IMG/VR virus record: IMGVR_UViG_2681813205_000017 | Location: 1 to 13,300 of that record | DNA: 13,300 nt | Source: a virus | Lineage: Duplodnaviria; Heunggongvirae; Uroviricota; Caudoviricetes | Reading direction: 5' to 3' (one strand) | Shown here: positions 1-12,058 of the stretch, in pieces | Layout of the letters: the number at the start of each line of letters is the position of its first letter | Position numbering within the stretch: the first letter of the stretch is position 1 | The notes under the pieces: model-generated | The model's input: only the letters and a program-made list of their open reading frames with translations | Told to the model about the DNA's origin: nothing | Databases searched by the model: none | Program-made: the position numbers and the translations under genes

Positions 1-162
1 ATTACTGCTTCAGGTTGGTGTATTGCTTGCATCTTTCCCTTTTCATTCATAAAGATAGATCAAACAACAAAACCACCACCACCCCCCTGAAAAGGCTCAT
101 AAATAGCGAAAATCCGCGAGGTCTCCGCCCCGTAACAGGTCCATATGCCGGAAAGGACCCGC

Positions 163-184
163 AAAAAAGCCGGATTTCTCCGGC
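163..184 (-). terminator. Intrinsic terminator ending the capsid operon (GCCGGA-GAAA-UCCGGC stem-loop plus U6 on the - strand)
   Basis: 6-bp GC-rich stem with a GNRA tetraloop followed by six U on the - strand RNA, 7 bp downstream of the stop of the 191..604 gene. Confidence 0.7.
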
Positions 185-190
185 CTTGTC

Positions 191-604
191 TCAGATGGTT
201 TTCAGTATGCGATCGATGTCGCCGTCATCGCCCGGGTTTCTGCCATCGTATGCCATGCCAGCTGATACGGCTTGTGGGCTGTGCATGTCCATAAAGTTTT
301 CAAAGGCTGCGGTAAGCTCTGGTGCAACCTTCGGGCGTTCCTGCTCTATGGTCATGTTCAGGATGTTTTTAGCCGTATCAACATCAATACAAGGCACGTT
401 TGCCATTGCACGTAACAGCGGCTGATAGTCGTCAGATTCATGAAGCGCCATAATCGCATCAGCGCGCGGCTTGTCCTTCTCTTCCAGGCTGTTAAGTTGA
501 TATACGGCCTCGTAGGTTGATAAACCTCTGTCAGCCATTGCCCGCGCTTCGGCTTTAAATTTACTCGCCAGCGGTAGCGTCATGATACTTTCATTCGTTG
601 CCAT
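191..604 (-). CDS. Hypothetical protein, last gene of the capsid operon (137 aa)
   Basis: ATG at 604 preceded by a GGGGG Shine-Dalgarno. Starts 13 nt after the stop of the decoration-like gene and is followed by an intrinsic terminator. The + strand ORF 15..425 overlapping it lacks such context. Confidence 0.6.
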   Translation of the reverse strand: MATNESIMTLPLASKFKAEARAMADRGLSTYEAVYQLNSLEEKDKPRADAIMALHESDDYQPLLRAMANVPCIDVDTAKNILNMTIEQERPKVAPELTAAFENFMDMHSPQAVSAGMAYDGRNPGDDGDIDRILKTI

Positions 605-616
605 CGTTCCCCCTGC

Positions 617-952
617 TTATCGCGCCAGCGGCTGAACGGATACGCCAGAACCCGCAAAGGCGGCGCATTTTTTCGCGTCGGTGTCGGCGCTCTCAGGCCA
701 GTTAACGGCGGCAATATTGAATATCCCCGTCTTGTAGCACTGTGCTGATTTCTGCGTCGACGTGTCCACGGGGTACGAGGTCAGATAAACAGCCTTGCCA
801 GATTCCTGACCATCCCACGGCTTAAACTCGCCATTTTCCGCCAGCATCAGCGGGGTAAATTCCTGAATAACGCCAGCATCAGCAGCAAAATGTACCAGCG
901 TCGTGGATACCTGCTGACTACCTGCAAATAACTCAATGTATGGAGTGTCCAT
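617..952 (-). CDS. Head decoration protein, lambda gpD-like (111 aa)
   Basis: Translation shares recalled gpD motifs (TPLML, WDG, YK-G-F, WPE, KK-AFAG-VSV) and similar length. GGGGGG Shine-Dalgarno 5 nt upstream of the ATG. Immediately downstream of the capsid gene. Confidence 0.7.
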   Translation of the reverse strand: MDTPYIELFAGSQQVSTTLVHFAADAGVIQEFTPLMLAENGEFKPWDGQESGKAVYLTSYPVDTSTQKSAQCYKTGIFNIAAVNWPESADTDAKKCAAFAGSGVSVQPLAR

Positions 953-964
953 AGAATCCCCCCG

Positions 965-2020
965 TTAACCAATTTTGACGATAACAAATTTGCGAATATC
1001 TGCCGGTACCGGCTGCGGTGCGCTGTGCGTCTGCACGTACTCAATCGCCGGATCGCCGTCCTCAATCCAGTTTTTCGGGTAAAACATGTTTTGCGTTGCG
1101 CCCGTTCTGACCGCTTCCTGATCCATAATCGCACCATAGGCCACCAGCCCTTTATTGTTGGTGTTACCCAGGACCAGCAAATCAGGCTCAAGGAAATATT
1201 TTTCGGTGCCGTCGCTGTCAGTGTATTTGCCGGAATAGACGACAAGGGCAATATCGCCCAGATAGCCTTTAAAGCTCACCACTTCACCCAGGTTTTTACA
1301 GGCCAGTTCTGCGGCGGATTCTGAACCACGGGAAAGGTCGTACAGTTCGCGGAATTTTTTAAAGCTGCGTAACGTGCGCCATACTTCAGCGCCCATAATC
1401 ATGACGTTTGCGGGGCAATTGCCCTGATCAGCATAAAGCTCGATGTCATAGATTGGATCGTGTGTTTCTTTATCCAGCTCAGACCATTTTTTACCGTCAG
1501 CCTGTTCTATGATATTGCTTTCCGGGATCTTCCAGTCGATTTCATAGCGTTCTATGCCTTCGCCCTCAATGAGGTTTTTTCCGGTCGTTACCGCATTCAC
1601 CGCCAGCCATTCCACGCGTGCCTTAATGGCGTTTATCTGGCGGCGCATGTTGCCAGTAATCAGGCGCATACGGCGATAGGTAGGATCGTTAAGCTGTGCC
1701 GGATCTTCTCCAGCCATGCGCATGATGGTTTTTGTTGGATCGATTTCGTGTTTGGGTTTCATGTAGCCTGGTTTAATCGTGCTGGTTTCGTACCCTTTAT
1801 CGCGCTGGACCTGACTACCCACCATAGGCGAACAGAACGCTGACATCGTAACCTCTTCAATGTCCAGGGTGTCCAGAATGATGTTCTGGGTGTTGAAGGT
1901 CGCCACGTTCGGGAAAAACAGCGTGGTAAACAGCGGACTGAATTTAAATTCTGCAATATCCCCGCGATTCAGGTACGCGAAAAGCTGGTTAGTGTTAAGT
2001 GCCGTTGCTTTGCCTGCCAT
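965..2020 (-). CDS. Major capsid protein, lambda gpE family (351 aa)
   Basis: Translation aligns along its length with recalled lambda gpE (FKF-PLF, PGYMKPKHE, DPTYRRMR, LRSFK, RGSES, VVYSGKY, LVLGNT, YPKNW, GDPA, SAP). GGAGGTG Shine-Dalgarno; start overlaps the upstream stop (TAATG). Confidence 0.85.
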   Translation of the reverse strand: MAGKATALNTNQLFAYLNRGDIAEFKFSPLFTTLFFPNVATFNTQNIILDTLDIEEVTMSAFCSPMVGSQVQRDKGYETSTIKPGYMKPKHEIDPTKTIMRMAGEDPAQLNDPTYRRMRLITGNMRRQINAIKARVEWLAVNAVTTGKNLIEGEGIERYEIDWKIPESNIIEQADGKKWSELDKETHDPIYDIELYADQGNCPANVMIMGAEVWRTLRSFKKFRELYDLSRGSESAAELACKNLGEVVSFKGYLGDIALVVYSGKYTDSDGTEKYFLEPDLLVLGNTNNKGLVAYGAIMDQEAVRTGATQNMFYPKNWIEDGDPAIEYVQTHSAPQPVPADIRKFVIVKIG

Positions 2021-2226
2021 TATTCACCTCCATGCGTCTGATTCATGCCCAGCGCCGCGCGTAAATAGGCGCGGACCTGCCAGCCTGTTGACGGCTCAAC
2101 CATCGCCAGCGGATCAAGTCCTGCCGCAATGCCTGCTTTTACGTTCTGCTGGTGGCGTTCCTTGAGCGCCTTCACGATGTCGGGGCTTATGTACACCGAA
2201 ACACCGCCTTTTTTCTCTTCAGCCAT
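2020..2226 (-). CDS. Hypothetical small protein, first gene of the capsid operon (68 aa)
   Basis: ATG at 2226 with a purine-rich ribosome-binding site. Stop overlaps the capsid start codon (translational coupling). Lies ~55 nt downstream of a near-consensus sigma70 promoter. Confidence 0.6.
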   Translation of the reverse strand: MAEEKKGGVSVYISPDIVKALKERHQQNVKAGIAAGLDPLAMVEPSTGWQVRAYLRAALGMNQTHGGE

Positions 2227-2282
2227 AGTAAGAAATTCCTCTTCGACTTAAAAAATCATAACTGGATGTTTATCCAGTCCTG

Positions 2283-2310
2283 ATTATAATCAGAATTGCA
2301 TTTTATGCAA
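2283..2310 (-). promoter_or_regulatory. Sigma70-type promoter of the capsid operon (-35 TTGCAT, 16-bp spacer, -10 TATAAT on the - strand)
   Basis: On the - strand, TTGCAT (complement of 2305..2310) and TATAAT (complement of 2283..2288) with a 16-bp spacer. Both hexamers sit inside perfect palindromes (TTGCATTTTATGCAA and CTGATTATAATCAG). Confidence 0.55.
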
Positions 2311-2390
2311 TGATATTGAGTTATGTTGCAAATTATGAAATGATTATCCCGATCACGAACGCCAGTGCATCCAAAAACCTCATATGCAAA

Positions 2391-2429
2391 AGCCCGATAA
2401 GAACCCTCTGACCTTATCGGGCTTTTTTT
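2391..2429 (+). terminator. Strong stem-loop with T7 tract (AGCCCGATAAG ... CTTATCGGGCT TTTTTTT); + strand intrinsic terminator geometry, possibly bidirectional
   Basis: 11-bp stem followed by seven T on the + strand. On the - strand the same hairpin is followed by UUUUG. No + strand gene upstream, so it may act mainly as a second - strand terminator or insulator. Confidence 0.5.
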
Positions 2430-2435
2430 GGGCGC

Positions 2436-2457
2436 AAAAAAGCCGGATTGCTCCGGC
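2436..2457 (-). terminator. Intrinsic terminator after the 74-aa gene (GCCGGA-GCAA-UCCGGC plus U6)
   Basis: Same module as 163..184 and 2799..2821 but with a GCAA tetraloop; lies 20 bp downstream of the stop at 2478. Confidence 0.7.
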
Positions 2458-2477
2458 TATGTGTGCTGTGTGCTGGC

Positions 2478-2702
2478 TCAGTCTCTGATCTCTTTCAGAA
2501 ATTCTATCAATGCATCTATCTGTTCAGGATTTACCGCCAGCATTTCACCGGACAGAGCACATCTCACAAAACCATGCTGATCCTTTTCAATCAGTGCGCC
2601 CGTCTCCAGGAATGCGCGGTAATCATTGATGCTCATCGTCTCCATGTTGTCAGCATGGTATTTATCACGCTGTTTTAATATCTCATCAAATTTCATCGGC
2701 AT
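2478..2702 (-). CDS. Hypothetical protein (74 aa), monocistronic moron-like cassette
   Basis: ATG at 2702 preceded by AGAGGA. The gene is bracketed by intrinsic terminators on both sides (2799..2821 upstream, 2436..2457 downstream). Confidence 0.6.
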   Translation of the reverse strand: MPMKFDEILKQRDKYHADNMETMSINDYRAFLETGALIEKDQHGFVRCALSGEMLAVNPEQIDALIEFLKEIRD

Positions 2703-2798
2703 TGTTTTTTTCCTCTGTTGTGTCTGTTTGTTTCAGATAGTAACTATGCCTGACCGTGACGAAAACCCGGTAATGCGCCATACCGTTTCAACTGGTGC

Positions 2799-2821
2799 AA
2801 AAAAAGCCGGATTTCTCCGGC
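2799..2821 (-). terminator. Intrinsic terminator after the PerC-like gene (GCCGGA-GAAA-UCCGGC plus U7)
   Basis: GNRA-tetraloop hairpin plus U-tract on the - strand, 8 bp downstream of the stop at 2829. Confidence 0.7.
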
Positions 2822-2828
2822 TGTTTGA

Positions 2829-3104
2829 TTAGCTGTCCTGGTAATTGCGCCATATTTCATCACCAGCACCATCTATACCCATTTCGGCATAAGTGCGATC
2901 GACTGCCTTTTTCAGGTCTCCGAAATTATCCGGCGGCTCCGGTGCCCTCTGTGCCTTCCTTGAACATTCCAGCCGTCGCATCGTGATGTGATGCCGTTCC
3001 TTGTCTGTCTCCACCAGCTGCATGACTTCACCCCATCGCGCCGCCGCCCTCCGGTAAAAGCCTTTCGCCTCTAGTTCCTCCGCTATGCGGTCATGTACCA
3101 TCGT
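2829..3104 (-). CDS. PerC-family transcriptional regulator (91 aa)
   Basis: N-terminal AEELEAKGFYRRAAARWGEVM matches the recalled PerC/Pch signature (LE-G-WRRAA-RW). The likely start is the ATG at 3104 (GAGGGGG Shine-Dalgarno, 8 nt after the SSB stop) rather than the ORF-track start at 3221, which would overlap ssb by 110 nt. Confidence 0.65.
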   Translation of the reverse strand, partial: TMVHDRIAEELEAKGFYRRAAARWGEVMQLVETDKERHHITMRRLECSRKAQRAPEPPDNFGDLKKAVDRTYAEMGIDGAGDEIWRNYQDS

Positions 3105-3111
3105 CACCCCC

Positions 3112-3522
3112 TCAGAACGAAATATCATCACCGTAAGGGTCATCGCCTCCCGCTGGTGGCTGATTACCCTGTGTGCCTGTGGTTTTGCGTCTGTTCCCGC
3201 CAGGACGTGCCGCACGGGCACTGATTACGCTGTCTGCAATAACCTGATACCCCTGCCGTGTTTCCCCGTTCTGTCCGGTCCACTGGCTTACCTGCATCGT
3301 GCCGGATACGCTGGCAACATCGCCTTTTTGATGTTTAGCCAGGAAATCGGCCTGTTTGCCAAATGCGATAACCGATAACCATAACGTCGCCTGTCCGTCA
3401 TGTGCCTGGCTGCATGGCAACGATACCGCCATACGCGCCAGAGTCATCGGTGTGCCCTTGCTGGTCTGTTTTACCTGCGGGTCGTCCACCAGCCGCCCGT
3501 AAGCGGCTATCTGTGCCGTCAT
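3112..3522 (-). CDS. ssb: Single-stranded DNA-binding protein (136 aa)
   Basis: OB-fold core resembles E. coli SSB (W-x-x-V-x-x-FGK ... KG ... W), followed by a Gly/Gln/Pro-rich linker and an acidic C-terminal tail DDPYGDDISF (E. coli SSB ends DDDIPF). GGAGAGGTG Shine-Dalgarno; ATGA overlap with the upstream gene. Confidence 0.85.
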   Translation of the reverse strand: MTAQIAAYGRLVDDPQVKQTSKGTPMTLARMAVSLPCSQAHDGQATLWLSVIAFGKQADFLAKHQKGDVASVSGTMQVSQWTGQNGETRQGYQVIADSVISARAARPGGNRRKTTGTQGNQPPAGGDDPYGDDISF

Positions 3523-3770
3523 AATTCCACCTCTCCGGTTTTAACGTTGATGGTTGTTACCTGTTCCGCTTCGGCAATCTCCCGTTCTGTCAGCGTGGCA
3601 AAGTTTGCCGCCGCCGTGGTCATGAATGCGCTTATCAGGTCGGGATGTTCCTTCGCGTATCCTTCCCGCGTGTGGCGGTCTATCGTTCTGATTGCCACCT
3701 TTAAGGTGTGCTCAGTCATGTCTAACGCTTTATATTTTGGCTCTGTTCTGTCTCTGCGTTTTTGGGTCAT
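3519..3770 (-). CDS. Hypothetical protein (83 aa from the ATG at 3770; alternative start at 3800 gives 93 aa)
   Basis: ORF translationally coupled to ssb (ATGA overlap). The ATG at 3770 has a GAGAGG ribosome-binding site and avoids overlap with the iterons. Confidence 0.5.
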   Translation of the reverse strand: MTQKRRDRTEPKYKALDMTEHTLKVAIRTIDRHTREGYAKEHPDLISAFMTTAAANFATLTEREIAEAEQVTTINVKTGEVEL

Positions 3771-3782
3771 TTCTCGCAACCT

Positions 3783-3973
3783 CTCACTTTTTCGCCTCAC
3801 TTTTTCAAGCGTCTCACTTCGTCGCAGCTGGGATTTTCGGTTTTTCTATGTGTGTGTTTCATAAGTATTTTTTTACCCCTCACTTTTGAGGATGTATACA
3901 GGTCGAAAAGTGAGGGAGAGCAGGCTAATTTTGGCCCTCTTTCTATCCACCTCGCTTTTGCTCCTCACTTTTA
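3783..3973. repeat. Putative replication origin: six CTCACTT(TT) iterons flanking an AT-rich stretch
   Basis: CTCACTT copies at 3783, 3796, 3813 and 3879, an inverted copy at 3906..3915 (AAAAGTGAGG) and another at 3963, plus a degenerate copy near 3950. AT-rich segment 3836..3876. Lies directly 3' of the helicase gene. Confidence 0.55.
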
Positions 3974-5371
3974 TAGCGGCGCTACATCATCCCCATCGAT
4001 ACGAATAACCCCATCTTTTTCCAGCTTGTACAGCCAGCGCCGGAAGTTTTTCATTTCATACCCCAGCTTTTTCATGTCATCACGTAACAGCGGGATCGTG
4101 CACTTGTCGCCGTTCTGTGTGCGTGAACGGATGCACCCCCATAGCGCGGTATGGTTTTCCGTCTTGTTCCCTGCCTCCTCGATGCGCTCCAGTTCAACAG
4201 GAGGGCGCGGATCATCCACCACCACCAGCGACGTGATTAATTCACCGTCAGCGTCGGTAAAAAGCTCCACCACGCGTAAGTCATATGCGGCTTCTTTGAG
4301 TTCCTCCGCGTCCTTCATTTTGGTGCATGAGATAACCAGCGCTTCGCTTCCTGCGTCCTCCCTGCGTATCCGGTATTCAGCATCCAGCGAAGCACGAAAT
4401 GCACTGGAACCGCGCGCGCCTTTCGTCTCATCCTTGCCGGAATGGTGAACCACCAGCACCGTGGCCCCTGTGCGTCGTTTCAGTTCGTCACAACCACGGA
4501 TAAACGCCCCCATATCACGGGAATCATTTTCATCATTCCCACCAAAGCAACGCGCCAGCGTATCCAGAATAATCATGCGTACAGGTTTACCCGTTTCCCG
4601 CTCCACCTGACGGGCAGCGATAACCATTTCATCAACATCAAGCGGGGCAGCCGGAAAGATGGGGCGGTTTACCAGATACAGATTTTTCACCTGCTCATCG
4701 TGCACAACCTCCCAGGCTTTTACACGACGCGGAACACCTATACCGCCTTCACCAACCACATAGAGAACCGCACCATGTGCAACCCTGCGGCCTCCCCACT
4801 GGCGACCAGTGGCAACATGGCACGCCCACGATCCGGCAAGGAATGATTTATAGGACCCGCTAGCCCCGTATATGCTGCATAGCGATACCGCCGGAATAAT
4901 CCCCTTAACCACGTAATCCAGTTGCGTGTCGTATCCGGTAGATCCAACGCTCATCGGTAGCGTGGTTTTTCGCTGGTGGTTTTTTTCTTCCGCCGGCTCT
5001 TTCCCGCGCACCCGTTCCAGGTATTCGCGCCAGTTCTCCCGCATATGGCTGTGCATCCCTTCGGGGTAATAATTCGCATCAGTTACACCCGCCGCCGCCA
5101 GCTTGTGCGCAATGGCATTAATATTTGATGGCCTGATGTGGCCTGCCTTGTACAGCCGGACACAATAGCGCCCCTCGTCGATGATTCTCAGGTCTGCCAG
5201 TTCATCCAGTTGATCATCAGCCAGCACAACGGGAGGCACATTATCGCCAGCCAGTCGCCCGTCCTGTTCCTGCCACTGTTTCGCATGTGCCCAGGCATCA
5301 CTACCCGCAAAAATAATGACTTCGGTCATCTTGTCGTAAGGCTGTTTTTTTAAGTTCGGTGCGCTTTTCAT
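3971..5371 (-). CDS. Replication initiator / replicative helicase, RecA-fold ATPase (RepA / AAA_25-like), 466 aa
   Basis: Walker A-like GASGSYKS, Walker B-like MIILDTLARCF, and VLVVHHSGKD typical of RepA/DnaB-like helicases of satellites and plasmids. ATGA overlap with the upstream gene; iterons immediately downstream. Confidence 0.75.
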   Translation of the reverse strand: MKSAPNLKKQPYDKMTEVIIFAGSDAWAHAKQWQEQDGRLAGDNVPPVVLADDQLDELADLRIIDEGRYCVRLYKAGHIRPSNINAIAHKLAAAGVTDANYYPEGMHSHMRENWREYLERVRGKEPAEEKNHQRKTTLPMSVGSTGYDTQLDYVVKGIIPAVSLCSIYGASGSYKSFLAGSWACHVATGRQWGGRRVAHGAVLYVVGEGGIGVPRRVKAWEVVHDEQVKNLYLVNRPIFPAAPLDVDEMVIAARQVERETGKPVRMIILDTLARCFGGNDENDSRDMGAFIRGCDELKRRTGATVLVVHHSGKDETKGARGSSAFRASLDAEYRIRREDAGSEALVISCTKMKDAEELKEAAYDLRVVELFTDADGELITSLVVVDDPRPPVELERIEEAGNKTENHTALWGCIRSRTQNGDKCTIPLLRDDMKKLGYEMKNFRRWLYKLEKDGVIRIDGDDVAPL

Positions 5372-5667
5372 TTCTTGCCCCTGAATCCGTTAATCATGGT
5401 TTTCAGCTTCTGGATGTTTGCCCGTGCCCTGGCGTTGCTGGTGGGCACGTTATGCGGCGCGGTCTGTACCAGAGAAAAATCACGCCGGAACTGATAAACA
5501 GGCATCACGCAATCATATTCGTAACCTTCACGGCGGTAGGTTACGCGCCGTTCTTCCACGCCCTTAATCATTACCGTGCCGCCGTACTGGTCGCGGTAAA
5601 TATCACCGCGCGTAAATTTAGGGTGAGTGTTGCCACTGGCAGTTAAGCCAGAATATTTAAGTTTCAT
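5368..5667 (-). CDS. Hypothetical protein (99 aa), translationally coupled to the helicase gene
   Basis: ATG at 5667; stop overlaps the helicase start (ATGA). Basic, Tyr/Arg-rich; no recognisable motif. Confidence 0.55.
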   Translation of the reverse strand: MKLKYSGLTASGNTHPKFTRGDIYRDQYGGTVMIKGVEERRVTYRREGYEYDCVMPVYQFRRDFSLVQTAPHNVPTSNARARANIQKLKTMINGFRGKK

Positions 5668-5672
5668 TATTT

Positions 5673-5906
5673 TTATTCTCCGGTGTGCTGTTCTTTATAT
5701 CTGTCGTGCAATAGATCTATTTCTTGCAGTTCCATTATTACAGGATCAAGAAGCGTTATTAATGCCGTGGCAATTCTTGATTTTTGTTTGTCGCGTTCAT
5801 TGTCGCCAAGTGTTTCAAGCCATATGCGCAATATTTCCAGCATGTTTTCACTGTGAGAAAGTGCAAGAAATGCGCGGTCTATTGTTTGGTGGTAAATATC
5901 ACGCAT
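5673..5906 (-). CDS. Hypothetical protein (77 aa)
   Basis: ATG at 5906 overlaps the stop of the upstream gene (ATGCGTGA). Part of the same coupled gene chain. Confidence 0.55.
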   Translation of the reverse strand: MRDIYHQTIDRAFLALSHSENMLEILRIWLETLGDNERDKQKSRIATALITLLDPVIMELQEIDLLHDRYKEQHTGE

Positions 5907-6357
5907 GGCTTACATCCTCAGGAAATTTTCTTCTATAACGCGCCTCTGCCACATATTCCGCATAATCGGCGGCGATATTCAGTACATCAAGCCCCGTTGA
6001 TTTATATTCTCTCGTGGAAAGTAAGAAAAAAGCCGCTCTAATAAGTTCTGGCATTGACGAAAGCGCATCAGCCGCATCATCAGGAACGCCGGAAAATTCC
6101 TGTTTCAGGGAATTAAAACGATCATCACGCATAACCCCCCCCCCATTTTCACAATCAGCAACAAGAATATTTTTAGCGTCATTCAGCGACCGCGTTGCGG
6201 TGTATCGGATACATTCCAGGGCGAATAGTGTGTATTCTTCCCTTTCTTCCCTTTCTTCCTTTTGTGCAAGCTCTGCTGTGCATTCAATATCAATAAGCGC
6301 GTGCATCAGCGTAGTGAGTGCGGCGGCGGCTGCGTCCGGTGTGGTTTTATTGCACAT
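5899..6357 (-). CDS. Hypothetical acidic protein (153 aa from the ATG at 6357) containing an in-frame G10 tract
   Basis: ATG at 6357 has a GGAGGGG Shine-Dalgarno 3 nt upstream. The ORF-track start at 6411 has no ribosome-binding site and would overlap the upstream gene by 65 nt. Contains an EEREEREE repeat and the Gly-Gly-Gly encoded by the C10 run at 6135..6144. Confidence 0.55.
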   Translation of the reverse strand: MCNKTTPDAAAAALTTLMHALIDIECTAELAQKEEREEREEYTLFALECIRYTATRSLNDAKNILVADCENGGGVMRDDRFNSLKQEFSGVPDDAADALSSMPELIRAAFFLLSTREYKSTGLDVLNIAADYAEYVAEARYRRKFPEDVSHA

Positions 6358-6577
6358 GTACCCCTCCGCATTTTTTTTCGTTAGAAATAAGCGTTCTTCT
6401 TTCCTGTTCATCGATCAGGAATACGCAGACCTCACCGCTAAGGCGTTTAAGTAAGCCGATGATTGCCCCTGATTCGCTGTCGGTCATCATGCCTGGGTAA
6501 TCCTCTGCCAGTGCGCAAATAACTTCGATTTGGTGGGCGCGTTCTACTGCCTGTTGTAGTGTGATTTCCTGGCTCAT
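6347..6577 (-). CDS. Hypothetical protein (76 aa)
   Basis: ATG at 6577 with a GGGGG ribosome-binding site; ATGA overlap with the candidate upstream ORF. Contains an A8 tract on the coding strand. Confidence 0.55.
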   Translation of the reverse strand: MSQEITLQQAVERAHQIEVICALAEDYPGMMTDSESGAIIGLLKRLSGEVCVFLIDEQERRTLISNEKKCGGVHVQ

Positions 6578-6774
6578 AAGCCTACCCCCTGACGAATACG
6601 GGCAGCGAATACCATCACGCAGCCAGCCGGGGATTGCAGGCGTGCTTCCTGTTCGCTGGTGGCCTCAATGGTAATCACGCGCGGTTGTGCAGTGCTCAGG
6701 GCGATAAAACGCCAAATGTATTTATTCAGGTTGTGCGAGTCCCGCCCTTGCGGGTGTGTGGTATGATTTCTCAT
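6574..6774 (-). CDS. Candidate small ORF (66 aa), putative first gene of the early operon
   Basis: Not listed separately in the ORF track; it is the C-terminal end of the spurious 381-aa ORF. ATG at 6774 with a GAGG ribosome-binding site 6 nt upstream; stop overlaps the next start (ATGA); ~100 nt downstream of the predicted - strand promoter. Confidence 0.4.
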   Translation of the reverse strand: MRNHTTHPQGRDSHNLNKYIWRFIALSTAQPRVITIEATSEQEARLQSPAGCVMVFAARIRQGVGL

Positions 6775-6872
6775 AGCTACCTCGATACTCTCGTTATCGT
6801 TGGTGGTTAGAAGCCCCGTTACTGCTCCTACAGTGCGGGGTTTCGTCGTTTCTGCACCTTGCATTAACAAGG

Positions 6873-6950
6873 TGTAAGTAACTTTATTTATAGGTGGCTT
6901 ACATGTCAATGCTTTTATGTAAGACTTTTTATGTGTATATTGTCTTACAC
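6873..6950. promoter_or_regulatory. Divergent switch region: four TGTAAG / CTTACA operator half-sites overlapping a - strand TTGACA-N17-TAAAGT promoter
   Basis: Half-sites at 6873 (TGTAAG), 6898 (CTTACA), 6919 (TGTAAG) and 6945 (CTTACA), alternating in orientation. On the - strand a perfect -35 TTGACA (complement of 6904..6909) and a -10 TAAAGT (complement of 6881..6886) with a 17-bp spacer. Confidence 0.5.
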
Positions 6951-6970
6951 TTTCATTGAGAGGATTACAG

Positions 6971-7276
6971 ATGGCTACAGGTTCAAAAAACGCAAAATCA
7001 CAATCACTGACAGCTCGGATCCCGCATGATGTTATTGAAGGCATGGAATCCGTAAAACTGGACGGTGAAAGCAACGCCGGATTCATAGTAACCGCCATGC
7101 GCGGTGAAATCGCCCGCCGCCAGGCAGAAGGAAGCGGAGAAAACCTCCTGATTTCTTCGCTCAATGCACTGGCGCAGGTGGAAAAACTCGGAATCAAAGC
7201 CGCCGAGGAGATCGGGCAGCTCGTCACTGTCGCACGTGAAGAACTCCAGCGCCGCAAGACTAAAGAACCAGAGTAA
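6971..7276 (+). CDS. Putative transcriptional regulator, candidate repressor of the early operon (101 aa)
   Basis: ATG at 6971 with a GAGAGGA Shine-Dalgarno. Divergent from the - strand operon and immediately downstream of the operator cluster. Function is inferred from position only. Confidence 0.55.
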   Translation: MATGSKNAKSQSLTARIPHDVIEGMESVKLDGESNAGFIVTAMRGEIARRQAEGSGENLLISSLNALAQVEKLGIKAAEEIGQLVTVAREELQRRKTKEPE

Positions 7277-7318
7277 TCACCATCAGCGCCGTGGTGTAAG
7301 GTATTACGGCGCATTGCT

Positions 7319-7507
7319 ATGCAGGACAACACAATGACCGATAAAGAATTGACCAAAACATTATCACCGGCACGGAAAAGACGGCGCAGAAAGATAGAGC
7401 ATGAATCAGAAAGATTCGCGCCATGTGCTTTTGCCCTTGAGCAATTCCTTAAAGAGTACAGGGAAAAGCGCTCATTGCAGGTATGGCAACGAACTGAACC
7501 AGACTGA
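7319..7507 (+). CDS. Small basic protein (62 aa; alternative start at 7334)
   Basis: ORF following the regulator on the same strand, with a Lys/Arg-rich stretch (ARKRRRRK). Followed by an intrinsic terminator at 7603..7630. Confidence 0.4.
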   Translation: MQDNTMTDKELTKTLSPARKRRRRKIEHESERFAPCAFALEQFLKEYREKRSLQVWQRTEPD

Positions 7508-7602
7508 TAGCATTGCCCACCAGCCTGATAGCGACTATCATTGCCGTTCTTATGTTTGGGATCACACACACAAACGGCGCAGCGGGTTATCTGTTCAGAA
7601 AG

Positions 7603-7630
7603 GCGGCTCCATTTCGGGGCCGCTTTTTTT
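7603..7630 (+). terminator. Intrinsic terminator for the + strand regulator genes
   Basis: GCGGCUCC ... GGGGCCGC stem (one G-U wobble) with a 5-nt loop, followed by seven T. Confidence 0.6.
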
Positions 7631-7776
7631 ATGTCTGAAAAACCCCAATTTTGTTGTTTTTCAGTTTCACCAGGGCGAACGAATCCCCGCCCACGTTCTG
7701 GCGTATATTCAATCTTCATGGTTATAGCTCTGTGTTCAGATGATTGATGTGTGGCGGCTGCGTGCCGCCAGCGTGA

Positions 7777-7965
7777 TTAATGAACTGCCTTGCAGCTATC
7801 CTTCCAGGCCAGAACCTCGGATAAAGACCAGCCAACGGAACGACCGCCAAGTTTACGACGTGATGGGAATTGTCCGGCCTTTTCCAGGCGGTAGCGACAC
7901 GTACGGCTAAGGCCGGTTAGTTTTTCGCATTCTTTTTCACGTATAAACCGATCAGTGCTTAACAC
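7777..7965 (-). CDS. alpA: AlpA-family phage regulator / excisionase-like protein (62 aa from GTG at 7965)
   Basis: CEKLTGLSRTCRYRLEKAGQFP ... GGRSVGWSLSEVLAWK matches the AlpA helix-turn-helix signature. The ORF track starts at a TTG at 8046, but a GTG at 7965 has an AGGGGGG Shine-Dalgarno and gives the typical AlpA length. Confidence 0.75.
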   Translation of the reverse strand: MLSTDRFIREKECEKLTGLSRTCRYRLEKAGQFPSRRKLGGRSVGWSLSEVLAWKDSCKAVH

Positions 7966-8238
7966 TATTGCCCCCCTTTCGTTTCTTAAAGAGTCATCAG
8001 GTGTCTTATTGTGTCGTATTGTTCCCGCTAGAGTGATGAATGGCAAATATTGAGGATGTATGATTTACAGAAAATGAAACAGTAAGAATAAAATCTTTTA
8101 AATTCATGTTAATACAAAGGCATAAAATATTGTTTCATGCCTTTTTTCTCACGCGTTAAAGCGTTATTCGCTAATGTATAAAAAAACAGTCACACAAATA
8201 AAATCAGTCACTTATAAACCTGTGTACTTTTTCGCCTC

Positions 8239-8288
8239 TTGTTCGTGGTTGTTCCACGTTGTTTCACATTGTTCGCCGTTGTATCTGT
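8239..8288. repeat. Five tandem 10-bp units each beginning TTGT (helically phased) between int and alpA
   Basis: TTGTTCGTGG TTGTTCCACG TTGTTTCACA TTGTTCGCCG TTGTATCTGT, an exact 10-bp period. Confidence 0.6.
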
Positions 8289-8330
8289 GTGCTTATCCAG
8301 TATGCGCATACTGAAAAAACACGAAAAAAA

Positions 8331-9548
8331 TTATTTTCTTCTGGCTGCTGGTAGTGCGGTTACGTTTTCATGTGTTCCCGCCAGTATCCCTAACCGCTCC
8401 ATCCACATATCCAGCGCATTGCGTTTAGCATCCAGATAACGGGAATGATTATAAACTCGCTGCATTCCTGGCATCTGGTGGCCTGTAAGCTGCTCCACGA
8501 CATGCGGATCAACGCCTAAATCGTTCAGCATGGTTGTAAAGGTGCGCCGGATGTCATGCAGTGACCAGTGAGGATGATTAAGCCTCCTGTGCGCTAATCT
8601 TCCATACTGCGATACGCTGGCCTCCTGTTTCACTTCCCCCAGCAATAAGCCCGTGTGCCTGTTCTGCTCCACCAGCTGCGTGACGAACGGCAGTATTGCT
8701 TCCGGTATGGGCCGGAATATTGCCACCTTCGTTTTGCTGTGTTCTTTCGGCACGGTCCAGAGCATTTCGGTAAAATCCCACTCGCTGATCTCCGATAACC
8801 TCAGTTCTACCGTCCGGCATCCGAACACAATCAGGAGGCGGATTAACGCGATGTAGTAGGGGGAGAATATTTTTTTGTCCAGTGCCTGCAATAATTCGCC
8901 CAGTTCTTTGGTGCTTAAGACACGCTCGCTTATATCCGGTTTTTTCCCAACGTCCGCCACACTCATATCATCAAGAACGTTGCTGATTGCATAGCGCCGC
9001 CTCCGGCAGAACTTAAGCGCCTGTTTGCACGTCTGTAGCAAGAATCCGGCAGTAACAGGCGTTCGCTTTGCCACCTGGTCAAAACAGGCCAGCCAGTGCC
9101 GTAGCTCGCATTTATCCAGCGGCATAGCACCAATGTGCTGTATTACGTGATTATTAAGTCGCCTTTTCAGGGCGATATAATCCACGCGGTTTTCCTTTAC
9201 GTAATACTCAAGCCAGTAGGTGAGCGCATCGCCAACCGTTACGGGCTTTAACGCTTCCTGTACGGTGTAATTCATCTCATGACGTGGATTTTTCCCCTCA
9301 GCCAGCCATGTGCGACACTGTGCGGCTTTTTCCCTGGCTGCTTTCAGGCTCAGATCAGGATAACTTCCCAGCTTAATGCGTTCGGGTCGTGTCTCCCTTC
9401 CCGTTCCGGCCCTGTATGTGAAATACCAGGTCAATTTCCCTGATGTTAAATATTTCACGCTCAGGTTTCCGCCATCACTATAAAACGTGTTTTTCTCCGC
9501 TGGCTTACCATGAAGTTTCCTTAGCAAGGTATCGCTCAGTTTGTTCAT
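8331..9548 (-). CDS. int: Tyrosine integrase, P4-like family
   Basis: N-terminal arm-binding-type motif (KPAEKNTFYSDGGNLSVKYL), C-terminal catalytic region with HDIRRT and VYNHSRY (R, H-x-x-R, Y). Start is probably the ATG at 9548 (MNKLSD...); the ORF track uses a GTG at 9560. It is the outermost island gene next to the junction. Confidence 0.85.
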   Translation of the reverse strand: MNKLSDTLLRKLHGKPAEKNTFYSDGGNLSVKYLTSGKLTWYFTYRAGTGRETRPERIKLGSYPDLSLKAAREKAAQCRTWLAEGKNPRHEMNYTVQEALKPVTVGDALTYWLEYYVKENRVDYIALKRRLNNHVIQHIGAMPLDKCELRHWLACFDQVAKRTPVTAGFLLQTCKQALKFCRRRRYAISNVLDDMSVADVGKKPDISERVLSTKELGELLQALDKKIFSPYYIALIRLLIVFGCRTVELRLSEISEWDFTEMLWTVPKEHSKTKVAIFRPIPEAILPFVTQLVEQNRHTGLLLGEVKQEASVSQYGRLAHRRLNHPHWSLHDIRRTFTTMLNDLGVDPHVVEQLTGHQMPGMQRVYNHSRYLDAKRNALDMWMERLGILAGTHENVTALPAARRK

Positions 9549-9584
9549 TGCTCTGCTCACGTTTTACCCCCTCTTTACGAAAAA

Positions 9585-9650
9585 GTGACTACACCAGTGA
9601 CTACACCGATCGTTGCACAAAGGGCTACAACGTGAAACAAGCTGGAACAA
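9585..9650. promoter_or_regulatory. int upstream region with a 12-bp tandem repeat (GTGACTACACC x2) and four 10-bp phased units ending ACAA; candidate arm-type or regulator binding sites
   Basis: GTGACTACACCA GTGACTACACCG at 9585..9608. CGTTGCACAA AGGGCTACAA CGTGAAACAA GCTGGAACAA at 9611..9650, which is the reverse complement motif of the array at 8239..8288. Confidence 0.45.
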
Positions 9651-9757
9651 GGAAAATCACAAATCTGTTGATAATCAAAAACATAATGCACAGCCTGAAA
9701 CATTATGAAACAGCAAAAAACACTAAATGATAAAATGCTGTTATTCTTAACCCGCTG

Positions 9758-10642
9758 GTGCAACACATGGTCCGCTGGCGAGTGCCGCGTGTACTGGCGG
9801 TGTCGATTTTGATGACCATCATCGTGATGGCGATGGTGTTGCTATTAGCTTATCTGGGTTCCGCGCTCAACGAGTTGACGCGGACGTTACCGCAATATCG
9901 CAACTCTATTATGACGCCGCTGCAAGCTCTTGAGCCGTTGTTGCAACGCGTAGGGATTGACGTCTCAGTTGACCAGCTGGCGCATTACATTGATCCGAAC
10001 GCGGCGATGACGTTGCTCACCAACTTATTGACGCAGTTATCTAATGCCATGTCATCAATATTTTTATTGCTGCTGACGGTGCTGTTTATGCTGCTCGAAG
10101 TGCCACAATTGCCCGGAAAATTTCAGCAAATGATGGCGCGTCCGGTTGAAGGGATGGCGGCGATTCAACGTGCAATTGACAGTGTTTCTCATTATCTGGT
10201 GCTGAAAACAGCCATCAGCATCATCACCGGCCTGGTCGCCTGGGCGATGCTCGCCGCACTCGATGTTCGCTTCGCTTTTGTCTGGGGATTGCTGGCCTTT
10301 GCGCTTAATTACATCCCTAATATTGGTTCAGTTCTCGCGGCAATCCCCCCTATCGCTCAGGTACTGGTGTTTAATGGCTTCTACGAAGCGTTGCTGGTGC
10401 TGGCGGGATATCTGCTGATTAATCTGGTCTTCGGCAATATTCTGGAGCCGCGCATCATGGGACGTGGGCTGGGGCTTTCCACATTGGTGGTATTTTTGTC
10501 GTTGATTTTTTGGGGATGGTTGTTAGGACCGGTGGGTATGCTGCTTTCCGTGCCGTTAACAATTATTGTCAAAATTGCGCTTGAACAAACAGCGGGAGGT
10601 CAAAGCATCGCCGTTCTGTTAAGCGATCTCAATAAAGAGTGA
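9758..10642 (+). CDS. tqsA: AI-2 exporter TqsA (YdgG), 5'-truncated by the island insertion (294 codons retained)
   Basis: Translation matches recalled E. coli TqsA from its internal [15 protein letters not shown] segment to the C-terminal SDLNKE. An in-frame TAA at 9731..9733 lies directly upstream and there is no native N-terminus or ribosome-binding site. The ORF-track start is an internal GTG. Confidence 0.8.
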
Positions 10643-10662
10643 CGGCCTCCGCAGAGGCCGTC
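10641..10662. terminator. Shared stem-loop between convergent tqsA and pntB (GACGGCCTC-cgca-GAGGCCGTC)
   Basis: 9-bp perfect GC-rich inverted repeat lying exactly between the two stop codons. Confidence 0.55.
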
Positions 10663-10666
10663 AGGG

Positions 10667-12058
<1,392 letters not shown>

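Follow-up and report, generated by a model that had tools for sequence, protein, structure and literature searches.

A phage-inducible chromosomal island integrated within tqsA of Escherichia coli at a known attachment site

Phage-inducible chromosomal islands (PICIs) that use tqsA as their attachment site have been described before. Table S1 of Fillol-Salom et al. 2018 (PMC6092414) lists EcCI042 (11 kb) and EcCIK1516 with the att sequence ATAACAGCA in tqsA; loss of the gene's function is not discussed there. Bobay, Rocha and Touchon 2013 (PMC3603311) reported that tqsA, which is otherwise close to being a core gene in E. coli, is disrupted by integration. (They classed the inserted element as a prophage, but it is a phage satellite, a PICI.) Mageeney et al. 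[quoted passage not shown] Our literature search found no paper that joins tqsA and PICIs in its main text; the link sits in a supplementary table (PMC6092414). The insertion site and the disruption of the gene are already published, and what we describe here is a rediscovery at the level of sequence.

We analyzed a stretch of 13,300 bp (the window), which is the whole of draft contig JXWM01000029.1 (assembly GCA_000932215.1). The contig ends inside an island, of which 9.7 kb is visible. The features that we assigned are in Table 1. Our main reading is that a PICI has integrated site-specifically into tqsA, that no full-length TqsA is left while the island is integrated, and that excision would restore the gene. 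We give this reading a probability of roughly 0.88.

Table 1. Features of the window and their positions.
Feature	Position	Strand	Basis or remark
PICI, visible part	1-9735	-	closest relative EcCI042; left end and attL beyond contig end
Lambda-E-like capsid protein	within 1-9735	-	
gpD-like decoration protein	within 1-9735	-	
137-aa head-related protein	within 1-9735	-	
PerC	within 1-9735	-	
DUF4222 gene	within 1-9735	-	
Icd-like gene	within 1-9735	-	
SSB	3112-3522	-	assigned island gene
RepA/AAA_25 helicase	3971-5371	-	assigned island gene
AlpA-like excisionase/transcriptional regulator	7777-8046	-	phrog_2790, phrog_66; ORF limits
Tyrosine integrase, 409 aa	8331-9560	-	Pfam Arm-DNA-bind_3, Phage_int_M (below cut-off), Phage_integrase
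60-aa ORF, RefSeq hypothetical protein WP_001332680.1	9548-9730	+	tqsA frame, ends at TGA
Two tandem 12-bp arm-type repeats (AGTGACTACACC x2)	9584-9607	+	integrase-proximal arm of attR
Stop pair, TGA 9728-9730 and TAA 9731-9733	9728-9733	+	in frame, island side; kept in all sampled attR junctions
att core TGCTGTTAT, attR copy	9736-9744		attB/attL/attR comparison; identical in 8/8 other carriers
tqsA 3' remnant, codons 44-344 and stop, without promoter or start codon	9737-10642	+	translation, K-12 comparison, PF01594
Nearest in-frame restart candidates, GTG 9758 (Val51) and ATG 9767 (Met54)	9758-9769	+	
G+C-rich hairpin, terminator-like	10640-10663		between convergent tqsA and pntB; untouched by insertion

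Everything to the left of 9736 is a PICI of the EcCICFT073/EcCI042 type. A tyrosine integrase lies at one end, 175 bp from a specific att site, and that site is identical to the one in described PICIs (EcCI042 and EcCIK1516). There is an AlpA-type regulator near int, the island has its own replication module, and transcription runs in one direction: all of the assigned island genes are transcribed away from the tqsA remnant. (The actual start of the AlpA-like gene is probably internal to its ORF; the equivalent gene in a relative carries PF05930, Phage_AlpA.) The gene order is that of EcCI042-type islands (int, alpA, icd-like, DUF4222, helicase, SSB, perC, the capsid-E homologue, and the gpD-like decoration protein). 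In the way of phage structural or lysis genes, 042-type islands have only the capsid-E and gpD homologues and a few small proteins, and some relatives have a small terminase subunit; in EcCICFT073, too, a homologue of the capsid protein and a head decoration protein are encoded (Fillol-Salom et al. 2018, PMC6092414). PICIs of this type are about 10-15 kb in size. Without its left end, the island occupies 9.7 kb of the window, as compared to 10.9-14.9 kb for the islands of relatives. Among complete genomes, E. coli 042 has the closest relative, an island that covers 92% of the window at 97.4% identity. The island in the window is a mosaic variant, and no complete RefSeq genome matches it throughout. 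EcCI042 and EcCIK1516 have the core, the target gene, the position, and the integrase clade in common with it, and the lineage-specific residues of the integrase fit the clade that targets tqsA. The arm-type repeats of the attR arm are also found as a pair in the attL arm of relatives, which is the pattern expected of arm-type integrase sites. Nothing relevant came from PADLOC for several further island ORFs, or from scanning the window with Rfam and for tRNAs.

We then examined the junction between the island and tqsA. The leftmost base of the window that aligns to uninterrupted E. coli genomes is 9736 (position 437 of the query 9300-10700). In the translation of 9707-10645, the Ala44 codon (GCT) is at 9737, within the att core, and this is where the host gene resumes, at the position that the original prediction had given. 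Beyond the junction, this translation continues uninterrupted to the normal C-terminus of TqsA (...LSDLNKE and a stop), ending at 10642. To define the core, attB was taken from intact K-12-type tqsA, attL from the left junctions of two island-bearing genomes, and attR from the window. The resulting sequence, TGCTGTTAT, is present once in attB and once at each end of the integrated island. We derived this sequence independently, and the published ATAACAGCA is its reverse complement. In terms of tqsA, the core starts at the third base of codon 43, covers codons 44 and 45, and ends at the second base of codon 46. Since the duplication of the core takes in codons 44-46, codons 1-46 make up the left piece of the gene and codons 44-344 the right piece. 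About 50 codons had been predicted to be cut off; the N-terminus is indeed separated, but it is 43 codons that the right piece is missing. Similarly, the in-frame TAA that had been noted upstream of the resumption point is present, but it is the second of two consecutive stops rather than a single one (the order at the junction is TGA, TAA, AAT, and then GCT). Because both stops are in frame on the island side, an in-frame fusion with an island ORF is ruled out.

Could the junction be an artefact of assembly? The 13.3-kb window is a draft contig in full, and its end falls within the island, in a module that other genomes have in islands elsewhere. Islands at a different chromosomal site in other genomes encode a capsid protein identical to the window's; if this strain has a second island of that kind, this would account for the break in the contig. 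Nevertheless, we consider an artefact to be extremely improbable. We searched 5,426 complete E. coli genomes and found the same junction between the integrase and tqsA in 247 of them. These are closed genomes, and in the carriers that we sampled there is a matching attL 10.9-14.9 kb away. An identical junction in 247 complete genomes is neither chance nor a feature of assembly. More broadly, of 5,423 complete genomes with tqsA, the attB region is uninterrupted in 5,170 and split in 253. Given 253 split genes and 247 junctions, nearly all of the splits at this position can be attributed to this family of PICIs. Overall, about 4.7% of the complete genomes, from many hosts, carry a split tqsA.

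The site-specific insertion would inactivate tqsA unless the other junction repaired it, as the original prediction had put it. The window's own attL lies on another contig, so we turned to relatives, namely eight complete genomes with the same right junction (isolates from humans, cattle, chicken, and fish, among others). All eight have their crossover at this 9-bp core, and their islands have eight different lengths (10.9-14.9 kb). In all eight, the product at attL is a stub of 48-54 amino acids, which comprises TqsA residues 1-46 and 2-8 residues encoded by the island. The tails of the stubs (IYN, IYNLF, IYNLLHITR, or IYNLFHLTH, each followed by a stop) vary with the island, which indicates that they are not a selected fusion. 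Since only stubs are found at attL in these relatives, tqsA is not restored in them. Could the island supply a surrogate for the N-terminus of TqsA? We found none in the visible 9.7 kb (the best tblastn hit had E = 0.71 and was far from the junction). And in the 253 genomes with a split tqsA, there is no second copy that spans attB. All of this agrees with the predicted inactivation, and by analogy to the relatives, we infer that tqsA is probably not restored in the window's own strain either.

Next, we considered the state of the remnant and whether it might be expressed. As compared to codons 44-344 of the K-12 gene, the remnant has 10 synonymous differences and no amino-acid differences, and it matches positions 32-326 of the 327 positions in the Pfam model PF01594 (AI-2E_transport). 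It is not a complete 344-codon ORF with its own start and the entire domain. A truncated TqsA (from Met54 to Glu344, or from a later start) might nonetheless be made from a weak promoter that points outward from the attR arm; in that case partial transport would be retained, and the gene would be attenuated instead of lost. The ORF at 9758-10642 is open, and the gene caller of the source assembly did report a 291-amino-acid AI-2E_transport protein that starts at ATG 9767 (annotated as 1379-2254 in the locus record). The proposed substrate pocket (HP1, H5, and H6) is in the C-terminal domain (Khera et al. 2022), which the remnant retains. Reading the sequence by eye, we noticed that TGATAAAAT at 9728-9736 looks like an extended -10 promoter element. 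This candidate could be the source of some transcription into the remnant. (The same element belongs to a conserved attP arm and is also present in a sister lineage of islands, which we describe below.) A scan for the sigma-70 promoter consensus on both strands of 9200-10750 had no match.

The prospects for translation are also poor. We computed the energy of the anti-Shine-Dalgarno (anti-SD) duplex over the 20 nucleotides before 9737, with the mean inside the gene (-2.45 kcal/mol) as the background. The native start of tqsA has an energy of -5.7 kcal/mol, as compared to +0.6 kcal/mol for the junction, which bears out the claim that there is no ribosome-binding site there. The values for GTG 9758 and ATG 9767 are +1.5 and -2.8 kcal/mol, respectively, and we found no Shine-Dalgarno sequence above the gene-internal background at either of these starts. 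Furthermore, the island's genes all point away from the remnant, and the counterpart of the remnant in every relative that we examined is annotated in RefSeq as a pseudogene ("missing N-terminus"). Together with the structural considerations below, these observations make a functional truncated TqsA very unlikely. The short ORF that ends at the junction is probably not a gene: searches of Pfam, PADLOC, and NCBIfam with its 60- or 95-amino-acid versions found nothing relevant. As it has no family match, lies inside the attP arm, and overlaps the start of the integrase, we take it to be an artefact of annotation.

The cryo-EM structure of TqsA (PDB 7NB6; Khera et al. 2022) clarifies what the remnant lacks. 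TqsA is a pentamer. Helix H1 (Thr7-Phe29) of each of the five protomers is entwined around the fivefold axis, which forms the main cytoplasmic contact between protomers and the central opening. Helix H2 (Ala31-Trp57) runs horizontally within the inner leaflet. The break, after Ile46, takes away the whole of H1 (which is absent from the attR piece) along with 16 of H2's 27 residues. This is close to the one and a half membrane segments that had been predicted. A product that restarted at Met54 would begin just before H3. Its N-terminus would still be cytoplasmic ahead of H3, so insertion into the membrane is possible. But H1, the element that holds the pentamer together, would be missing, and so loss of function is the most likely outcome.

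Putting these results together, we propose the following mechanism for the insertion. The tyrosine integrase of the island would recombine attP with the 9-bp core TGCTGTTAT at codons 43-46 of tqsA. The attL piece, which is outside the window, would have the promoter, the start codon, codons 1-46, and then island sequence with a stop after 2-8 codons. The attR piece (9736-10642) has codons 44-344 behind two stops, with no start, ribosome-binding site, or inward-reading island gene. In the integrated state there would be no full-length TqsA, and any product of a restart at Met54 or later would lack H1 and most of H2. If the island excised precisely, tqsA would be whole again. Nothing here departs from the usual site-specific integration by which a known phage satellite enters its known target.

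We have two pieces of evidence that the insertion may be reversible. First, by sequence comparison, the left half of attL and the right half of attR together make up an intact allele of tqsA. As the recombination is conservative and the remnant is undamaged, precise excision would rebuild the gene. Second, we found the joined attP (the attR arm, TGCTGTTAT, and the attL arm) in two contigs, neither of which contains any tqsA sequence. One is an IMG/VR contig of 11,098 bp with a terminal overlap of 119 bp, which indicates a circular assembly. The other is a metagenomic contig of 11,271 bp in which the island is circularly permuted and attP is in the middle. A joined attP without tqsA flanks fits with precise excision at this core and might represent excised or concatemeric satellite DNA. 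A caveat is that tandem copies of the island in the chromosome could, in principle, give the same attP junction. By extension, the insertion in the window's strain may be reversible. The two contigs also lend indirect support to the possibility that a helper phage induces, replicates, and packages the island.

How does the island come to be in tqsA? A sister lineage of PICIs, found in 544 genomes, is integrated between roxA (ycfD) and phoQ, and its integrase is 93% identical. In this lineage (for example, EcCIRM12579 and O157-type islands), the core is AAATATGTCC/GGACATATTT, unlike the core TGCTGTTAT of the tqsA site, and the arm repeats are TTAACTACACC, which differ from those of the tqsA lineage. 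The roxA-phoQ site is intergenic and no gene is disrupted, whereas the tqsA lineage splits a gene. In other respects the lineages are similar: the attP arms are conserved, the cargo modules are interchangeable, and the capsid protein is identical. Around the core, about 35 bp differ between the attP sites of the two lineages, and the arms are alike. We compared 10 integrase sequences from the tqsA site to 4 from the roxA site and found 22 positions with no residue in common between the lineages. All but one of these positions are in residues 1-133: 18 are in residues 1-58 (the arm-binding domain) and three are at positions 121, 129, and 133. The remaining one is at position 314. The window's integrase is a natural chimera: residues 1-133 match the tqsA type, and much of what follows (the C-terminal part) matches the roxA type. 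The chimera and the fixed differences imply that site choice goes with the integrase's N-terminal part together with the attP core.

In an alignment of the two attB sites, flanking bases on the right agree (AT.CTT.AC), and the blocks of identity overlap by 7 bp. This suggests that the overlap region is TGCTGTT. We also considered whether tqsA might be an off-target site of the roxA-phoQ integrase. We rejected this, since both the attP core and the fixed integrase residues are peculiar to the tqsA lineage. As judged from these sequences, tqsA is a dedicated target of its integrase/attP lineage. When we scanned genome contigs for the same integrase beyond E. coli, we found it at one locus only, in Shigella flexneri; this locus is of the roxA-phoQ lineage, and its int gene is interrupted by a stop.

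We then asked what the loss of TqsA would mean for carriers of the island. In K-12, deletion of tqsA is reported to raise biofilm formation, motility, intracellular AI-2, and lsr expression (Herzberg et al. 2006, as described in Khera et al. 2022). An effect on quorum sensing or biofilms in carriers, which the original prediction raised as a possibility, is plausible, but the case for it is weaker than it may look. Our literature search found no paper on the phenotype of carriers, nor experimental data on excision in response to a cue. Alternatively, tqsA might be split with no consequence for the host. If TqsA is dispensable or redundant, or is a minor route for AI-2, then the gene would be a tolerated landing site and its disruption would be silent. 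AI-2 "still remains a probable substrate" of TqsA, and E. coli has three paralogues of TqsA, namely YhhT (46% identical), YdiK, and PerM (Khera et al. 2022). The roughly 4.7% of complete genomes with a split tqsA come from many hosts and live without the intact gene. Also, in strain 2015C-3905, a further frameshift has arisen in the remnant near codon 250, which is in keeping with a gene that the cell no longer needs. On the other hand, the K-12 deletion is reported to have the phenotypes just described, tqsA is otherwise nearly a core gene (Bobay 2013, PMC3603311), and in the other seven of the eight sampled carriers, the remnant is open and almost free of amino-acid changes. We give a silent disruption somewhat less than an even chance.

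If the phenotype is real, then about 1 in 20 sequenced E. coli would differ in their handling of AI-2 and in biofilm formation because of a phage satellite. Among the carriers are O26 enterohemorrhagic E. coli and 042, the reference strain for enteroaggregative E. coli. In that event, loss of the island by curing or excision would undo the difference, and the island would offer a useful case, found in nature, of a mobile element that controls a signalling gene.

A stronger version of this idea is that integration serves as a regulated switch, of the kind called "regulated gene integrity" or active lysogeny, in which excision driven by a cue turns tqsA on and carriage of the island is selected for its control of AI-2 export. 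The inclusion of tqsA among the candidates of Mageeney 2020 (PMC7192596), the intact remnants in 7/8 carriers, the occurrence of joined attP forms in nature, and the demonstrated spontaneous excision of the related PICI EcCICFT073 all fit with such a switch. So do two features of the locus itself: the same position is used by related integrases in several independent elements (247 genomes), and a conserved domain is disrupted without restoration. But excision of PICIs is normally tied to induction of a helper phage and ends in lysis of the cell, so a restored tqsA would rarely benefit that cell. Furthermore, the sister lineage uses a harmless intergenic site, which suggests that the target reflects drift of the integrase and attP rather than selection for a switch. 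Selection for regulated excision therefore seems unlikely to us.

It is also conceivable that carriage is not neutral because the loss of TqsA raises intracellular AI-2 and lsr expression, while spontaneous or helper-triggered excision restores export. The island would then be a reversible and heritable AI-2 switch, which might benefit the satellite, for instance via induction of the helper prophage. The intact remnants in most carriers, the existence of excised forms, and the dedication of the integrase/attP lineage to this site are compatible with this idea. We consider it distinctly unlikely.

Finally, we compared this locus to other elements that split genes. Mageeney 2020 (PMC7192596) describes three elements in tqsA (Eco33.11.tqsA, Eco557.15.tqsA, and Eco282.16.tqsA, identified by TIGER). 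These are 11-16 kb in size, have integrases from one tyrosine-integrase clade, and disrupt the UPF0118/AI-2E domain without restoring it. The inference in that study and the kind of evidence are the same as ours; what we add is how often the split occurs among genomes, what the break means for the structure, and the attP contigs. The classical gene-splitters discussed by Mageeney 2020 (PMC7192596) are phi10403S in comK of Listeria, skin in sigK of Bacillus subtilis, and elements in mlrA of E. coli. As with the island in tqsA, a conserved coding region is split by an element with an integrase and would be made whole again if the element excised precisely. What sets the classical splitters apart is that regulated excision and a role in the phenotype have been shown experimentally for them.

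A residue comparison between lineages shows that the integrase in the window is a natural chimera of two parts. One part is of the tqsA type, and the other is typical of the sister lineage of PICIs (phage satellites) at the intergenic roxA-phoQ site. Throughout residues 1-133, the protein has the tqsA-lineage residue at every position that is specific to that lineage. Within residues 142-405, the protein has residues that are typical of the roxA-phoQ lineage (L174, M199, S200, I237, C248, S259, A402, and A405). Across the two lineages, the arm-binding N-terminus, A314, and the attP core (attP being the joined island site) co-segregate with the choice of target, but the rest of the catalytic domain does not.

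Features discussed in the text, with coordinates in the sequence or locus named
Feature	Sequence	Coordinates	Strand	Description
Open frame	window	6574-7719	minus	381 aa; ~290-aa stretch without assignment, plus Icd-like domain
Integrase	window	8331-9560	minus	
Imperfect direct repeat	window	9627-9726		37 nt, 70% identity, copies 63 bp apart
Island	O26 RM10386	5559-20445 of locus L001		14.9 kb
Island	E. coli 042	5469-16511 of locus L003		11-kb EcCICFT073-like PICI
tqsA remnant	2015C-3905	15081-15985 of locus L008		

The attR arm also contains an imperfect direct repeat with many GAAACA motifs, located between the core and the arm-type repeats. An accessory factor, for example an excisionase or IHF, may bind within it.

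We found the joined attP, with no tqsA flank, in two environmental contigs (IMGVR_UViG_3300045988_152974 and CYGL01000683.1). Each is about one island length in size, and one of the two has a 119-bp terminal overlap. These contigs are likely to be excised or packaged satellite genomes.

In E. coli 2015C-3905, the tqsA remnant has an extra 1-base frameshift near codon 250, within a run of C. Either the split gene is genuinely decaying in this carrier, or the frameshift is a sequencing error. In Shigella flexneri SFBU1023, the integrase of the roxA-phoQ-type island has a stop codon at residue 116, so this island is probably immobilised.

Variation within the island is greatest in the alpA-icd interval. 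It includes a long open frame whose residues 334-377 form an Icd-like cell-division-inhibitor domain. Of this frame, no more than the 66-aa Icd part is called as a gene in the source assembly, together with a YlcI/YnfO-like gene on the opposite strand; most relatives have a pseudogene annotated at this position.

The window is a complete draft contig (JXWM01000029.1), and its position 1 falls within the island. In a comparison of loci L013-L017, the 351-aa capsid protein of the window recurred unchanged in PICIs that other genomes carry at roxA-phoQ, so a repeated module is the probable cause of the assembly break.

Finally, the int-attP(tqsA) module is common to two distinct types of satellites. 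The first type is the EcCICFT073-like PICI, which is found in E. coli 042 and in the window. The second is the island of O26 RM10386, which encodes an HK97-type capsid, a portal, a protease, head-tail connectors, an HNH protein, and the large and small terminases. This island is similar to capsid-forming PICIs.
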